Assembly: GCA_965202725.1 (NCBI GenBank)
Contig: OZ241845.1
Coordinates: 794,640-858,639, forward strand
Origin: Candidatus Poribacteria bacterium
GTDB taxonomy: Bacteria > Poribacteria > WGA-4E > WGA-3G
Reading direction: 5' to 3'
Length of the DNA stretch: 64,000 nucleotides
Each line of letters starts with the position of its first letter. Position 1 is the first letter of the stretch. Made by a program: the position numbers and the translations under genes. The notes under the pieces were generated by a model. The model searched no databases. It saw nothing but the letters and a program-made list of their open reading frames with translations, and was not told the origin of the DNA. Of this stretch, positions 19,791 through 25,960 are shown piece after piece.

Positions 19791-19851
19791 TCGATTTTGA
19801 TGGTTGATGCGCTGTCCATAGTTGCACCTTCTGTTAGGAGAGTTCACCAAC

Positions 19852-20460
19852 ATGATGCATTTCACGGATACACTTGTTAAAACGTACGAAAAGTACGCCC
19901 ATGAAAGAGCATCGCGCTCTCCTGACGAATTTAAGGGGAAAGAGCGATCAGAGTTTCTCAAATTATTGAAGGCTGAAGATCGGGAGACGCTACTTGAAAT
20001 TGGGTGTGGCCACGGTCGGGATGCCGAGTTTTTTCAATCGCAAGGGTTCAGAGTTTTGGCAGTGGACAATGCGCCAACGATGGCGAAACTCACTGCGGAA
20101 AAGGGAGTCCCTGCGCGAGTCTTGAATTGCTACGATCTTGACGAAATAAACGAGCGTTTTGACGCAGTCTATACCATGAATTGTCTCTTACACATACCGA
20201 AGCGGAATTTTGATCGGGTTTTGGGTTTAATTTCAGGGAGACTTAACGAAAACGGTTTAATGTATCTCGGTATTTGGGGGGACGAAGACTTTGAAGGTAT
20301 CTGGAAGCACGATATATATGAGCCGAAGCGGTTTTTCTCTTTCTGGAAAACAGAAGCACTGCTTGAAATCCTGCAACGATTGTTTAGATTAGAATATTAC
20401 CGGCGATTAGAGCCGTATGAAGGCAGGATTTTCAATTCCTTTATTGTTCGTAAACGATAA
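19852..20460 (+). CDS. class I SAM-dependent methyltransferase
   Basis: LEIGCGHGRDAEFF motif I and an acidic motif II (VLAVDNA). Confidence 0.55.
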   Translation: MMHFTDTLVKTYEKYAHERASRSPDEFKGKERSEFLKLLKAEDRETLLEIGCGHGRDAEFFQSQGFRVLAVDNAPTMAKLTAEKGVPARVLNCYDLDEINERFDAVYTMNCLLHIPKRNFDRVLGLISGRLNENGLMYLGIWGDEDFEGIWKHDIYEPKRFFSFWKTEALLEILQRLFRLEYYRRLEPYEGRIFNSFIVRKR

Positions 20461-20624
20461 CTTGATTGCTAAACACGAATGGAGGTGGAAATGATTTGAA
20501 GGTATCTTCAGACGGCATATCATCGTAAAGAGTTGGTATGCAATGTTAGATGGTGAATGGGCTGCTACTAAGAGGAACATGCAGATGTGTCTGTATTAGA
20601 ATCCAGACCGGCGGTTGTCCTTAA

Positions 20625-20805
20625 CGACACTCCATAGTGGTAGATGTTAAAACAATTCTGATATGATTTACGCATGTTACTCTAGCGACACTCCATAGTG
20701 GTAGATGTTAAAACAATTCTGATATGATTTACGCATGTTACTCTAGCGACACTCCATAGTGGTAGATGTTAAAACAATTCTGATATGCTTTACGCATGTT
20801 ACTCT
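20625..20805. repeat. tandem repeat, 61-bp unit x3 (CGACACTCCATAGTGGTAGATGTTAAAACAATTCTGATATGATTTACGCATGTTACTCTAG)
   Basis: Three head-to-tail copies with 1-2 mismatches, immediately followed by an A-motif-like sequence at 20806-20836. Confidence 0.85.
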
Positions 20806-20874
20806 TTTGTAGCATAACCTGTTAGGTTGTGCTACCCATATTTAACGGAAAAAACAATACGTCTTAGGTAATGT

Positions 20875-20965
20875 GAGCCTATTCTAGGTCTCATTTTACA
20901 GTGGACGGAAAGGTATGAAGCCTACATACTGCGGAAATGTCAGCCTATTCTAGGTCTCATTTTAC
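20875..20965. repeat. 25-bp direct repeat pair (xAGCCTATTCTAGGTCTCATTTTAC) 41 bp apart, overlapping the ggt stop codon
   Basis: Copies at 20875-20899 and 20941-20965. Confidence 0.7.
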
Positions 20966-22578
20966 CCCAATCCCGCCGCGTGCCTCCCTGTAGCTGGATC
21001 GCCAGCAGCATAGAACGTCTCGTTACCCTTATCTATATAGAGCATGACGGGTACTGCAATAGCACCGCTGTGCGCCCTGAGTTGATGTCCGCGATTGGTG
21101 AGTTCGTGCCGTACACTTTCGCTCACACTGTCATTAATCATCAACGAACCTGCTTGTCCAAATGTCTGCGGACGGTTAGGGTTGGGGTCAAACGAATCTT
21201 CATGATGCGAGGTGGCAAAGCGTGGGGCTGTGACTGCAGCTGCCGGTAGCATGTCAAACTCAATAAAGTCAAGTAGTACATTCATCGTCGCTTGGTCCTG
21301 GAGATCACCCCCCGCAACACTGATTGCCAAGATCGGGGATCCACCTTTAAGTACCAGCGTAGGTGTAAGCGTAATTCTCGGGCGCTTTCCGGGCTGGATA
21401 CAGTTCGGGTGCCCTGGCGTTGTATTGAGACTCCTTAAGCGGTTACCATAGCTGACACCTGTCGGACCGACCATGCCTCCAGCATGATAGACGTTGGCAC
21501 TCGGCGTAGCAGCGACGACGTTTCCCCATCGGTCAGCAACCACGCAGGTCGTTGTTCCCCCTACACCGGGTCTGAACAGGCCCTCCGCTTTTAGCGGTTT
21601 CATGTTCGCTACATCTCCCGGTCTCGCTTCGTGCGATGCTGTGTCCATATCAATTAAAGGTCGACGGATGTCAGTATAGGCATCCGACAGAAGACCAGAC
21701 AATGGGACATCCACGAATTCTGGGTCACCGTAGTAGGCATCACGATCAGCCATCGCCAGCTTAAGTGCTTCTGTAACCACGTGCACATAGTCTGCTGAGC
21801 AGTGTCCCATCGCTTTGAGGTCGAAGCCTTCCAATAACCGTAGTGCCTGACAGAGATAGGGGCCTTGGGTCCACGGACCGCACTTGTACACCGTATACCC
21901 TTGATATTCTACTGATACGGGCTCTTCAACGAGCGTAACGTGCGCAGCGAGGTCTCTTTTACGAAGGAAGCCTCCCTTTTCAATGTAAAAACCTTCCAAA
22001 GCATCGGCAATGTCGGTATTAACGCCGTTCCGTCCATAGAACCGATTGCTTGCTGCTTGCACCTTTTCCTCGCGACTCCCAGGGGTTTTTCGTTCTTCTT
22101 CGACCATCCGACGGAGGGTAACCCCCAATTTGGCGTGCCAATCCGCGCCACCCGCATCCAGAAGCGCCAGTGTAGGCCCCACGATGTCCTCAAATGTTTT
22201 TGTCCCATATAATTTGAGTGTTGTCGTGCAGAGGTCCACAACCGACGGCACAGGTGCCATTTTGATGTCGCCGTTCGGAATTCCGTTTTCCATGTACCAA
22301 TTGACAGCATCTTGTGAAAGGGGTGCACGTCCTTGGCCAGAGAGCGATTTTACTTCTTGTTTTTCTGCGTCATAGATAAGGAAAGGCACCTCACCGCCAA
22401 TAGAGCATTCCCCGTGATCTGTAACGTTAAGTGCAAGAATTATTCCCGCTGCTGCATCCGCCGCGTTGCCACCTGCCTCCAGAATCTTAAGCCCGGCGTC
22501 GACAGCCTCGGCACCACCAGCTGCAACGACTCCTGTTTTACTAACTGCGTTCCAACCAATTTCTTGCGTATGTGACAT
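20962..22578 (-). CDS. ggt: gamma-glutamyltranspeptidase family protein (Ntn hydrolase), no signal peptide
   Basis: Catalytic GGTTTCVV threonine motif and the GGGDLQDQA region. 538 aa. Confidence 0.7.
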   Translation of the reverse strand: MSHTQEIGWNAVSKTGVVAAGGAEAVDAGLKILEAGGNAADAAAGIILALNVTDHGECSIGGEVPFLIYDAEKQEVKSLSGQGRAPLSQDAVNWYMENGIPNGDIKMAPVPSVVDLCTTTLKLYGTKTFEDIVGPTLALLDAGGADWHAKLGVTLRRMVEEERKTPGSREEKVQAASNRFYGRNGVNTDIADALEGFYIEKGGFLRKRDLAAHVTLVEEPVSVEYQGYTVYKCGPWTQGPYLCQALRLLEGFDLKAMGHCSADYVHVVTEALKLAMADRDAYYGDPEFVDVPLSGLLSDAYTDIRRPLIDMDTASHEARPGDVANMKPLKAEGLFRPGVGGTTTCVVADRWGNVVAATPSANVYHAGGMVGPTGVSYGNRLRSLNTTPGHPNCIQPGKRPRITLTPTLVLKGGSPILAISVAGGDLQDQATMNVLLDFIEFDMLPAAAVTAPRFATSHHEDSFDPNPNRPQTFGQAGSLMINDSVSESVRHELTNRGHQLRAHSGAIAVPVMLYIDKGNETFYAAGDPATGRHAAGLG

Positions 22579-23081
22579 CGGTTTCCCTCGCCTCCATCAT
22601 CAGAAGTTGTTCTCATTTTTAATTTCGTTCTCCGCCTTAGAGCATAGCACAATATTTTATCTCATGCAACATTTAAAACAGTGCAAAATTTTTGACACGA
22701 AACTTCGTAAGTGCTAATCTATAGACAATACACTCATAGGACTTGACACGCACCGACGATCCGGTTTAAACTTTAACAGAAATTTAGAAGGCTTGCTGTG
22801 TGCGGATTGAAATGTTTAATGAAGTGCCGAGAATCACTAGGATGCTGTTTGCTTCTGTTGTGTTAGCAAATGAAATCCAGAACACATCACAAGGGTTGTT
22901 AACCCCTTTCCAGAGTGAACGGGCAAGAGAAGGCTCTGAGTTATTGTGGTAAATCAAGGCGTAGCCAAGGAACGATATAGACACTATCTGACTCTGGGCG
23001 CATATAGGCTCGCTGAAGCCTCATACGCTTACACCTCAGATTTTCTTTCTTTTGCGTTTCAAGACCCAAATTCTAAAAAAG

Positions 23082-23111
23082 TTGACATTCAGCAACACAT
23101 CGGGGTATAAT
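23082..23111 (+). promoter_or_regulatory. sigma70-like promoter (TTGACA, 18 bp, TATAAT) 7 bp upstream of the Rpn start; duplicated at 24288-24317
   Basis: Consensus -35 and -10 hexamers seen directly in the sequence. Confidence 0.5.
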
Positions 23112-23117
23112 CTGAAT

Positions 23118-24071
23118 ATGGAAGATAGCTTAAACCAACGTTCTGACGAATTACCACACAACCGATACGATATCGTCAGCAAACATATCTTTGGAACGTT
23201 CACCGAAGAATTATTGCGGGCCCTGACCAAAATCCCAGGGCTGAAGTTCCTTGAGCAGCTTGAGACTGAACTTCCCACCGTTGAGATACGCCGTATGGAC
23301 GTTTTGGCGAAGACGCTTGTTGAGGCACAAGAGGTTTTAGTGCATGTTGAATTCCAAGTCAGCAGGGAGGCGCGGGCGGAGATACTCCAACGCAAGGTTG
23401 GCTATTTCGGGCGATGCTTTGAAAGATATGGCTTGCCGATTTTGTCTTACACTATCTATCTGAGCCCGGATGCGGGTCAGAATGACCCCGGCGGGTATAG
23501 TCAAATGTTTCCCGGACACAAGGTTGAGATAGAGTATCAAGTGATCCGGCTCAGTGAACTTGAAGACCAGTCTATTTTTGAGACGGGGCAGACTTCCTTG
23601 ATGGCATTTGCGCCCTTGATGCGTCCGCGAACGGGGGTATCCGCGGTTGAATGGGTTGAGGAATGTCATCAAATCACGGGTGCACTGTCGTTGGAACCAG
23701 AGCTTCGGAAAGATTTATTACTATGGCAATGGGTTTTGAGCGGTTTAATCGTTGACCCTGCCGACATCCAGCATCTGATGGAGGGACCCATGTTAGAATC
23801 ATCCACTTACCGATATATCCTACAACAAGGCATAGAACAAGGCATAGAACAAGGCATAGAACAAGGCATAGAACAAGGCAAAAAACAGTACGCAGTTGAA
23901 GCAATTCTCACGGTGTTAGAGATACGATTCCAAACAGATGTTGCAGAAAAGCTAAAACCTTTTCTCGGTGCTATTGACGATCTACAACGTCTGGATCAGC
24001 TACACCGAGTCGCCGCACAAGCATCAAGCATTGATGCCTTTACACATGCCCTCTTGAACCTTGAAAATTGA
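23118..24071 (+). CDS. Rpn-family (YhgA-like) PD-(D/E)xK recombination-promoting nuclease / putative transposase, with C-terminal (QGIE)4 repeat
   Basis: DIVSKHIF...RRMDVL...VHVEFQ...PILSYTIYL matches the Rpn nuclease core. Four tandem 12-bp units GGCATAGAACAA. Confidence 0.6.
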   Translation: MEDSLNQRSDELPHNRYDIVSKHIFGTFTEELLRALTKIPGLKFLEQLETELPTVEIRRMDVLAKTLVEAQEVLVHVEFQVSREARAEILQRKVGYFGRCFERYGLPILSYTIYLSPDAGQNDPGGYSQMFPGHKVEIEYQVIRLSELEDQSIFETGQTSLMAFAPLMRPRTGVSAVEWVEECHQITGALSLEPELRKDLLLWQWVLSGLIVDPADIQHLMEGPMLESSTYRYILQQGIEQGIEQGIEQGIEQGKKQYAVEAILTVLEIRFQTDVAEKLKPFLGAIDDLQRLDQLHRVAAQASSIDAFTHALLNLEN

Positions 24072-24323
24072 AAAGTTCGAAGACGAATATATCTCACACC
24101 TGACAGAGAGATACCCTAAATTGTGCGATGAAAATTCCGAGCATCCTTTTCAGAGCCCCTTGGAATAGACAGAAGAAGAGTGGAAACAATTTGTCGATCG
24201 GCTTAGCGTATAGGCTCGCTGAAGCCTCATACGCTTACACCTCAGATTTTCTTTCTTTTGCGTTTCAAGACCCAAATTCTAAAAAAGTTGACATTCAGCA
24301 ACACATCGGGGTATAATCTGAAT

Positions 24324-25313
24324 ATGGAAGATAGCTTAAACTAACGTTCTGACGAATTACCACACAACCGATACGATATCGTCAGCAAACATATCTTTGG
24401 AACGTTCACCGAAGAATTATTGCGGGCCCTGACCAAAATCCCAGGGCTGAAGTTCCTTGAGCAGCTTGAGACTGAACTTCCCACCGTTGAGATACGCCGT
24501 ATGGACGTTTTGGCGAAGACGCTTGTTGAGGCACAAGAGGTTTTAGTGCATGTTGAATTCCAAGTCAGCAGGGAGGCGCGGGCGGAGATACTCCAACGCA
24601 AGGTTGGCTATTTCGGGCGATGCTTTGAAAGATATGGCTTGCCGATTTTGTCTTACACTATCTATCTGAGCCCGGATGCGGGTCAGAATGACCCCGGCGG
24701 GTATAGTCAAATGTTTCCCGGACACAAGGTTGAGATAGAGTATCAAGTGATCCGGCTCAGTGAACTTGAAGACCAGTCTATTTTTGAGACGGGGCAGACT
24801 TCCTTGATGGCATTTGCGCCCTTGATGCGTCCGCGAACGGGGGTATCCGCGGTTGAATGGGTTGAGGAATGTCATCAAATCACGGGTGCACTGTCGTTGG
24901 AACCAGAGCTTCGGAAAGATTTATTACTATGGCAATGGGTTTTGAGCGGTTTAATCGTTGACCCTGCCGACATCCAGCATCTGATGGAGGGACCCATGTT
25001 AGAATCATCCACTTACCGATATATCCTACAACAAGGCATAGAACAAGGCATAGAACAAGGCATAGAACAAGGCATAGAACAAGGCATAGAACAAGGCATA
25101 GAACAAGGCATAGAACAAGGCAAAAAACAGTACGCAGTTGAAGCAATTCTCACGGTGTTAGAGATACGATTCCAAATAGATGTTGCAGAAAAGCTAAAGC
25201 CTTTTCTCGGTGCCATTGATGATCTCCAACGTCTGGATCAGCTACACCGAGTCGCCACACAAGCATCAAGCATTGATGCCTTTACACACGCCCTCTTGAA
25301 CCTTGAAAACTGA
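24324..25313 (+). pseudogene. second Rpn-family copy, disrupted by a nonsense codon at codon 7 (MEDSLN*), (QGIE)7 repeat
   Basis: Same promoter and ATG as copy 1. TAA at 24342-24344. The listed ORF restarts at an internal TTG at 24420. Confidence 0.55.
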
Positions 25314-25369
25314 AAAATTGGAAGACCAATATATCCCACACCTGACAGAGAGATACCCTAAATTGTGCG

Positions 25370-25960
25370 ATGAAAATTCCGAGCATCCATATCATCGGCA
25401 ATCCGCCGCAGGCGGGAACGTATCTTTTGTGGATTCGTCTCAAAGAAGATGCGGTAGTACAATTCGGGCGGTTCAAGAATGGGAAACGTATTTCGCTACC
25501 TGCTGGTAATTATAGCTATGTAGGTTCTGCGCTTTCGGAAAAAGGGGCAACCTCACTCGCTCGACGGCTTATCAGACACACAACTCGGAGTGGTAATAAA
25601 CCGCCACACGCTATCCGGGAAGAAATGATCACTCGGTTCGCAGAATGTGGTTTGGGCCCCCCGGATCTACTACCGAAACACGGTAAAACTTTGCACTGGA
25701 ACGTCGATTTTCTGTTGGATCTACAATCGGCGGAGATCGTAAATATCCTTGCTATCCGTTCTCCTGAGCGTTTAGAAAATAGAATTGCCAAGCGGCTTGA
25801 ACAGGATCCGCGGACAGAAATTATCGAATCAGGGTTAGGAGCCAATGATGCCCCCGGTAGCACACATCTGTTACGCCTCCGATCACATAAAATATCGTGG
25901 GCATCTGTAGTGATGATTATCAGAGAAAAAGTCCTAAATCAAATTATGTACTACGAATAG
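25370..25960 (+). CDS. DUF123 / Uri-superfamily (GIY-YIG-like) putative endonuclease
   Basis: GTYLLWIRL...YSYVGSA...HWNVDFLL resembles the DUF123 pattern. The start codon lies inside the 3' tail of the duplicated unit. Confidence 0.4.
   Translation: MKIPSIHIIGNPPQAGTYLLWIRLKEDAVVQFGRFKNGKRISLPAGNYSYVGSALSEKGATSLARRLIRHTTRSGNKPPHAIREEMITRFAECGLGPPDLLPKHGKTLHWNVDFLLDLQSAEIVNILAIRSPERLENRIAKRLEQDPRTEIIESGLGANDAPGSTHLLRLRSHKISWASVVMIIREKVLNQIMYYE

Follow-up and report, generated by a model that had tools for sequence, protein, structure and literature searches.

It has been shown that the rpn genes of Escherichia coli encode two products, a toxic full-length nuclease (RpnL) and a small antitoxin (RpnS) translated from an internal start (Zhong et al., 2023, PMC10400941). 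Repeats of four amino acids, e.g., KGIE, begin 8–20 residues into RpnS, their number differing from strain to strain, and RpnS blocks solely the RpnL of equal repeat number (PMC10400941). The five E. coli proteins, RpnA to RpnE, are YhgA-like and belong to PF04754 (Transposase_31), TIGR01784 and COG5464 (PMC10400941; Kingston et al., 2017, PMC5350276); rpn arrays arise by tandem duplication, with stand-alone small copies (RpnSs, DUF4351) located downstream (PMC10400941). Here we analyze a locus at 23000–25388 of a 64,000-nucleotide stretch, hereafter the window, of contig OZ241845.1 from a Candidatus Poribacteria bacterium, which carries two tandem copies of a gene with an in-frame 12-bp repeat. 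We consider it probable that these are two paralogs of a divergent Rpn-type "gene within a gene", the second of which is toxin-null.

The two direct, near-identical copies described in the original prediction are present, but they do not form a head-to-tail join, as a 59-bp spacer parts the units. The units, their promoters and their long frames are as follows.

23000..24146, + strand, repeat unit 1, 1147 bp (blastn, global alignment): remnant of a GNAT gene, promoter, intact long open reading frame (ORF), intergenic stretch and the first 19 nt of a DUF123 gene
24147..24205, + strand, unique spacer between the units, 59 bp, the 3' part of which continues the GNAT-gene remnant of unit 2
24206..25388, + strand, repeat unit 2, 1183 bp (blastn, global alignment)
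23082..23111, + strand, promoter of copy 1: TTGACA at 23082–23087, 18-nt spacer, TATAAT at 23106–23111 (12/12 consensus match)
24288..24317, + strand, promoter of copy 2, identical to that of copy 1 (12/12 consensus match)
23118..24071, + strand, long ORF of copy 1, 317 aa, RpnL-like, with an N-terminal PD-(D/E)xK domain, a long repeat-bearing helix and a C-terminal helical domain
24324..25313, + strand, long frame of copy 2, stopped by TAA at codon 7 (24342–24344)

Global alignment of the units shows 14 substitutions and one 36-bp gap, i.e., 98.8% identity over aligned bases and 95.8% with the gap counted, and this gap is the difference in the 12-bp repeat. Codon 7 reads CAA in copy 1 (23136–23138) and TAA in copy 2 (24342–24344). 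The predicted TTGACA/TATAAT promoter holds in both units and is conserved in orthologous loci (L003, L004, L010–L014, L022). Given that 6 nt separate the end of the -10 box from the ATG of the long ORF, which has no Shine-Dalgarno (SD) sequence, the mRNA of the long form is probably leaderless whereas the small form described below would be SD-driven.

The structure is derived from a metagenome, and the contig of one assembly ends 240 bp upstream of copy 1, so that an assembly artifact or a two-strain chimera has to be considered. Contigs from two other ENA assemblies, ERZ26693861 (731 kb) and ERZ26051151 (6.5 kb), are 100% identical to the window over 7.2 and 6.6 kb, respectively, including the x4 and x7 repeats and the TAA codon, which makes an assembly artifact very unlikely. 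The three assemblies are identical base for base over 6.5–7.3 kb, the spacer is unique and the flanks distinct, and the 2.4-kb structure is embedded in contigs of 731 kb and of 64 kb or more. We therefore give an artifactual origin practically no credence, and the nonsense change, found also in both other assemblies, is genuine.

Within each long frame, there is a second, in-frame start with the sequence signals of a translation initiation site.

23780..23792, + strand, internal start of copy 1: GGAGG at 23780–23784, 5-nt spacer, ATG at 23790 (M225)
23790..24071, + strand, inner small ORF of copy 1, RpnS-like, 93 aa, sharing the frame of the long ORF
24986..24998, + strand, internal start of copy 2, intact: GGAGG at 24986–24990, 5-nt spacer, ATG at 24996
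24996..25313, + strand, inner small ORF of copy 2, 105 aa, intact

Compared with its counterpart in copy 1, the small ORF of copy 2 has three additional repeats and two substitutions (T273I and A300T in the numbering of the long ORF of copy 1). Among the 64 family genes with a recognizable ESSxY motif, the codon two positions before this motif is ATG in 45, GTG in 18 and TTG in one, i.e., a start codon in 64/64. All 18 valines at this position are encoded by GTG, compared with 30% GTG among Val codons generally, and an exact GGAGG lies 5 nt upstream in 61/64 genes, against 0.43% at other in-frame positions. Furthermore, the residue that follows the conserved Glu varies (G, D, A, E or V) while its codon always begins with G, which points to selection acting on the nucleotides. 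The rpnA, rpnB, rpnC and rpnE genes of E. coli, as well as ypaA, share this arrangement, in which the SD includes a Glu codon three codons ahead of the Met, and the internal signal of the window gene thus matches, at the level of sequence, the intragenic RpnS start.

This start is also used, it appears, outside the full-length genes. ORFs that consist solely of the C-terminal part occur beside a full-length paralog in about 12 of 80 related loci and start at this very codon with GGAGG, and ypaA of E. coli has the same SD-start arrangement; some of the stand-alone small ORFs are preceded by a stop just a few codons upstream of the start. For the orthologous locus, six distinct products of 81 or 85 aa starting with MLESSTY are already on record. 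The signature looks more uniform in this family than in E. coli, and the "gene within a gene" design appears to be ancient and general. In one homolog (P0120/L086), the identity to the window protein is about 45% overall and 83% in the C-terminal domain (window 23790–24071), which suggests that the small-ORF module may be exchanged between paralogs.

The relationship of the long protein to the Rpn nucleases becomes apparent only through intermediates. In the comparison with the models named in the original prediction, the window protein reaches 19.4 bits on TIGR01784 (cut-off 52.1), over residues 233–260, i.e., the repeat only; it has no match to PF04754 even at E<=10 and none to DUF4351 (PF14261). 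Scans of the protein against Pfam, NCBIfam and PADLOC gave no family match above cut-off, a profile search of PDB sequences returned nothing relevant, and a Foldseek search of the PDB with the full-length model gave weak matches only. Among 45 family members, 36 have sub-threshold matches to TIGR01784 and one matches PF04754 (E=0.039), and three match DUF4351, as do the distant homologs P0291 and P0279. A profile of these 45 members retrieves 6,780 representative clusters, a large clade that is missed by the curated Rpn models. Three proteins that match this family profile over their full length (~1e-30) do pass the curated thresholds: P0278 on TIGR01784 (58.4) and PF04754 (26.6), P0279 on TIGR01784 (67.0) and DUF4351 (58.2), and P0291 on DUF4351 (73.8). 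Given that BLASTP aligns the window protein with P0278 over residues 16–312 (E=7e-19) and also with P0279 (E=1e-14), its homology to the Rpn family, as traced through these sequences, can be considered secure.

The conserved residues lead to the same assignment. D18, K22, H76, E78, Q80 and R92 are invariant across the 45 family members and D61 is nearly so (>=90%). In an hhalign comparison with RpnA, RpnB, RpnC and RpnE of E. coli, D61, E78, Q80 and R92 fall on D63, E82, Q84 and R94 of RpnA (E=3.6e-4, catalytic core only); the comparison with RpnA alone is not significant. D18, in the motif PH..D...K, corresponds to D11 of RpnA in PHD..FK. Mutagenesis has shown that D11, D63, E82, Q84 and R94 are essential in RpnA (PMC5350276), and by this alignment all five are kept in the window protein. 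The PD-(D/E)xK core is hence present, as originally proposed, and the locus encodes a nuclease of the Rpn kind in two direct copies. As in RpnA to RpnE, the core is N-terminal, with the D...ExQ...R signature and the N-terminal PH..D...K motif, and an SD that includes a Glu codon three codons before the Met provides an in-frame internal start.

The small ORF also has the repeats that are characteristic of RpnS, consisting of one hydrophobic residue with charged residues or Gly, QGIE here and KGIE in RpnC.

23826..23873, + strand, in-frame 12-bp repeat (CAAGGCATAGAA)x4, encoding QGIE x4
25032..25115, + strand, in-frame 12-bp repeat (CAAGGCATAGAA)x7, encoding QGIE x7

In the form GGCATAGAACAA, the same counts are found at 23829–23876 (x4) and 25035–25118 (x7). 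The in-frame repeat and its counts are thus as originally described. The repeats begin at residue 13 of the small protein, inside the range of 8–20 residues reported for E. coli, and lie within a helix predicted at 229–271. The array was described as expanding, but no direction is evident, with x1, x2, x6 and x7 found in orthologs. Because the units within one array share synonymous codons that differ between lineages (ATA for Ile in the window, ATC or ATT elsewhere), the arrays seem to have repeatedly collapsed and re-expanded. Adjacent paralogs with near-identical C-terminal domains and different counts are found elsewhere in the family, namely L027 (x6/x2), L078 (x0/x1/x2+), L056 (x3/x2) and L080 (x1/x3), and, judging by these sequences, the x4/x7 pair of the window fits a recurring pattern of neighbors that differ in repeat number. 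As in E. coli, repeat number varies between close relatives, and tandem arrays are accompanied by stand-alone small copies. More than 10 repeat units are present in P0022 and L071. An exact scan of JGI metagenome contigs for the left flank of the repeat, aimed at population variants, found nothing.

The homologs closest to the window gene come from metagenome-assembled genomes of Candidatus Poribacteria, which are sponge symbionts. In the orthologous chromosomes, a single copy of the gene is followed, in conserved order, by the genes for DUF123, an M29 peptidase, a 161-aa protein and a sulfatase. The orthologous loci are all single copy, and the duplication is therefore specific to this lineage. 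The high identity of the units had been taken as a sign of a very recent event. The distribution of the differences does not agree with this interpretation: two of the 14 substitutions are the nonsense change and a change at the left edge (23002), and the remaining 12 fall in 23935–24094, all of them 3' of the repeat. From 70 nt upstream of the ATG up to the repeat, the copies differ at 1/781 sites, compared with 8/195 (4.1%) in the coding bases 3' of the repeat (Fisher p=1.7e-5); for the whole units, the respective values are 1/826 and 12/270 (p=4e-7). The eight coding differences 3' of the repeat comprise six synonymous and two nonsynonymous ones (T273I and A300T). When polarized with two outgroups, 4 of the derived states fall to one copy and 5 to the other, and in both segments the copies are each other's closest relatives, with orthologs about 10% away.

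Since the 3' differences are dense, the 5' part has nearly none and derived states are found in both copies, the simplest reading of these sequences is that of an older duplication in which about 0.93 kb at the 5' side was recently homogenized by gene conversion, up to or just past the repeat; the near-identity would then reflect the homogenization. In terms of divergence, the duplication would lie roughly 40% of the way to the closest species sampled. Within the homogenized tract, the copies differ solely by the nonsense change, which therefore postdates the conversion and is the only event that is demonstrably very recent.

The abrupt rise in divergence from 0.1% to about 5% close to the repeat could, in principle, also result if the duplication is recent and the diverged 3' end of one copy was imported from a related strain by homologous recombination, all the more so because the C-terminal domain appears exchangeable in this family, as in P0120. 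We regard such an import as improbable. The 3' parts of the two copies are nearest to each other (8/195), whereas the available orthologs are 20–27/195 away and include no donor allele; the derived states are split between both copies; and the copies share an intergenic deletion relative to L003 and L004, a unique ATA Ile codon in each repeat unit and the duplicated start of the DUF123 gene.

The ends of the units lie in remnants of the neighboring genes.

24167..24244, + strand, remnant of the N-terminus of a GNAT/FR47-like acetyltransferase, 26 aa, 61.5% identity (tblastn of L004:39-902 against the window, E=1e-4)
24128..24146, + strand, duplicated first 19 nt of the DUF123 gene (ATGAAAATTCCGAGCATCC), the right end of unit 1
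25370..25960, + strand, DUF123 gene, 196 aa, the syntenic downstream neighbor, whose first 19 nt are the right end of unit 2 (Pfam PF01986 E=2.4e-17; synteny)

In both units, the left end is inside the GNAT-gene remnant, of which unit 1 holds a shorter piece (23000–23038), and the right end is 19 nt into the DUF123 gene (ATG 25370). A hairpin, GCGTATAGGCT-CGCTGA-AGCCTCATACGC, is located at 24206–24234, and at 23000–23028 in unit 1, on the exact left edge of the high-identity tract. In copy 2, where it lies inside the GNAT-gene remnant, its predicted DNA folding free energy is -9.5 kcal/mol (z -2.9); the copy 1 hairpin is weaker because of the A/G difference at 23002. For the 59-bp spacer, no DNA match was found elsewhere in the window or in the compared loci, just the protein similarity to the GNAT remnant, and the left flank of copy 1 (22941–22999) has no convincing homology to it.

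These ends bear on the suggestion that an Rpn protein is transposase-like and that the duplication and repeat instability are self-inflicted, speculation on which was already voiced for the rpn genes (PMC10400941). The historical annotation as "putative transposase" and the multicopy character of the family, with at least nine copies in one chromosome, would be compatible with insertions of a mobile element that encodes an Rpn-like transposase. However, the unit ends have no terminal inverted repeats and no target-site duplications, they lie inside remnants of the neighboring GNAT and DUF123 genes, the gene is syntenic and single copy in the orthologous chromosomes, and the published analysis of rpn genes reaches the same conclusion (PMC10400941). 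We consider a transposon extremely improbable and rejected it on account of the missing inverted repeats and target-site duplications; the self-inflicted instability is still speculation.

It had also been proposed that copy 2 is silenced due to dosage toxicity. The stop abolishes just the long product of toxin type and spares the SD-led small ORF: copy 2 still has an intact promoter, internal SD, start codon and 105-aa ORF. Copy 2 appears, by its sequence, to be best described as a toxin-null unit from which the small protein could still be made. The next in-frame starts after the stop, TTG at codon 33 and ATG at codon 60, lack an SD and are both beyond D18 and K22, so that re-initiation as a route to an active nuclease was rejected. 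As a caution for annotation, gene callers split copy 2, which yields a 270-aa "protein", and they overlook the small ORFs.

The orthologous loci provide evidence that a small ORF can outlive its nuclease. L093:2736-3258 and L095:2736-3246 share a deletion with ATGG microhomology that removes the nuclease part and DUF123, and L094:2732-3258 has lost the nuclease part through a different internal deletion; all three retain the promoter, the SD and an ORF of 85 or 81 aa. Between L093 and L095, which have x2 and x1 repeats and flanks diverged by about 7%, the small ORF differs by six synonymous and no nonsynonymous substitutions. Given that these arose after the loss of the nuclease, the pattern is indicative of purifying selection on the small protein in these two loci. 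The reverse case is found in L005–L008 and L022, where an in-frame deletion joins the Rpn-like residues 1–197 to DUF123 from residue 80 to the end and the small-ORF region is gone; in the window, the equivalent would be 23118–23710 joined to 25610 onwards. The catalytic residues are all intact in such fusions, e.g., L005:5001-5924 (307 aa), which is labeled just "DUF123 domain-containing protein".

Strong expansions of the family occur in genomes of sponge symbionts. The "Latescibacteria" chromosome OY282377.1 carries at least nine paralogs (L064, L066, L069, L070, L073, L075, L076, L082, L084), and further expansion is seen in L059/L077 (OY282383.1) and L078; the arrays contain up to three full-length copies together with several small ORFs of the C-terminal part only.

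Against this background, the possibility that copy 2 is simply dead, the result of a plain recent tandem duplication and ordinary pseudogenization, with a small ORF that has no function of its own and neutral slippage to x7, has to be weighed. The stop at codon 7 with no usable restart before the essential D18 fits this explanation, as does the fact that T273I and A300T are both derived in copy 2, and, should the E. coli rule apply, the small protein with x7 would not fit the x4 nuclease. Nevertheless, the 3' part has six synonymous against two nonsynonymous differences and both copies carry derived states, which implies that the duplicate is not recent and was under constraint during most of its existence; copy 2 shows no lesion in its promoter, SD, start codon or 105-aa ORF; and the small ORF is under purifying selection at the nuclease-less orthologous loci. 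We accordingly consider a dead copy 2 unlikely, albeit the least unlikely of the alternatives discussed here.

Several observations count against the interpretation of the locus as two Rpn-type paralogs, the second of them toxin-null. The curated Rpn and DUF4351 models do not recognize the window protein, whose identity to the E. coli Rpn proteins is about 20% or less, and the toxin-antitoxin logic is carried over from the latter. The model of the C-terminal domain (residues 233–317, pLDDT (predicted local distance difference test) 84; the fragment began at Y233, whereas the internal Met is 225) comprises one long helix and three short ones and finds neither RpnAS nor any other significant Foldseek match in the PDB; domains of the RpnS/DUF4351 type form a dimer of three-helix bundles. 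Under the repeat-number rule of E. coli, the x7 small protein would not neutralize the x4 nuclease, and copy 2 may be simply decaying. The DUF123 fusions show that, in their context at least, a nuclease domain can be tolerated in the absence of its presumed antitoxin. The surroundings (GGT, DUF123, M29 peptidase, sulfatase) are not a defense island, and PADLOC yields just a weak match, in the repeat region. Finally, simple unequal crossing-over does not explain the 59-bp spacer or the unrelated left flank of copy 1. Unlike the E. coli genes, moreover, the window locus is chromosomal and syntenic, and its long form appears leaderless, from a consensus promoter.

The closest parallels to copy 2, whose only expressible product is the small ORF, are the small genes that follow rpn genes and hold the C-terminal part only, in the pairs rpnE-ypaA (RpnESs) and rpnC-RpnCSs, and the DUF4351 stand-alone genes. 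Copy 2 differs from these in that the nuclease coding sequence is still present, disabled by a single base change, and in that its small ORF differs from that of the neighbor by three repeats. It is plausible, as far as the sequence goes, that copy 2 is an intermediate towards a stand-alone gene of the RpnSs/DUF4351 type. A more distant analogy is provided by the TAEL repeats in HsdS of EcoR124I and EcoR124II, in-frame repeats that tune specificity (cited in PMC10400941). There, as would be the case here, the number of helical four-residue repeats alters helix length and hence partner or target specificity; in HsdS this sets the spacing of the DNA target, whereas the repeats in the window presumably set protein–protein matching.

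By analogy with the E. coli system, we hypothesize that the consensus promoter drives a leaderless mRNA for the 317-aa PD-(D/E)xK nuclease, the toxin-type long form, whereas the internal SD and the ATG at codon 225 would yield a helical, antitoxin-type short form of 93 aa in copy 1 and 105 aa in copy 2, with the QGIE repeats in its first helix. The short form might bind and block the long form through the repeat helix, such that only equal repeat numbers match. What the sequences themselves show is the anatomy, the homology, the conserved internal start, the way in which the copies diverge and, at other loci, selection on the small ORF; the toxicity, the neutralization, the expression of the products and any defense role are proposed solely on this analogy. 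In the putative course of events, a duplication in this lineage took in the segment between the GNAT-gene remnant and nt 19 of the DUF123 gene, the two copies came to differ by about 4–6%, gene conversion homogenized some 0.93 kb at the 5' side, ending at or just past the repeat, and the repeat numbers then parted (x4, x7), upon which the units would be non-cross-reacting; most recently, CAA>TAA at codon 7 would have removed the long form of copy 2.

The sequence upstream of copy 1 has its own peculiarities. The 420 bp between GGT and copy 1 (22579–22999) have neither a convincing ORF nor an RNA family nor any convincing homology to the orthologous loci, which have a gene of about 700 aa in this place, and we conclude that the flank was rearranged in this lineage. 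Further upstream, in the 500-bp gap between the convergent genes for a methyltransferase (19822–20460) and GGT (20962–22578), there are three tandem copies of a 61-nt unit, 97–100% identical (20622–20804), and a 33-nt direct repeat (20867–20899 and 20933–20965, 66 nt apart), both of which are also identical in L002 and have no Rfam match; an Rfam and tRNA scan of 20300–25600 gave no match either.

Variable four-residue repeats, tandem duplication and orphan small copies have been known for Rpn since 2023; the novelty here lies in a divergent clade, for the most part unannotated, in which the internal start is strikingly uniform, and in the natural series of states that one locus displays. These findings extend the 2023 work and do not overturn the current understanding. 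The series comprises an intact single copy, a tandem pair with x4 and x7 repeats, a one-base toxin knockout, a nuclease-deleted locus whose small ORF is kept by purifying selection and a DUF123 fusion, so that the birth of stand-alone RpnS genes and the insulation of duplicates by repeat number become directly testable. More tentatively, and with doubts that outweigh our confidence, we propose that sponge symbionts (Poribacteria, Latescibacteria) harbor a large Rpn-like clade with a leaderless toxin and an SD-led inner antitoxin in one frame, in which tandem duplication and a subsequent change in repeat number would generate mutually insulated units and toxin loss would generate orphan antitoxins, the x7 protein of copy 2 being kept for a function of its own. 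If this is the case, such a function might be, e.g., the buffering of other paralogs or of incoming relatives, and the window would catch the birth of an orphan antitoxin one mutation after it happened.

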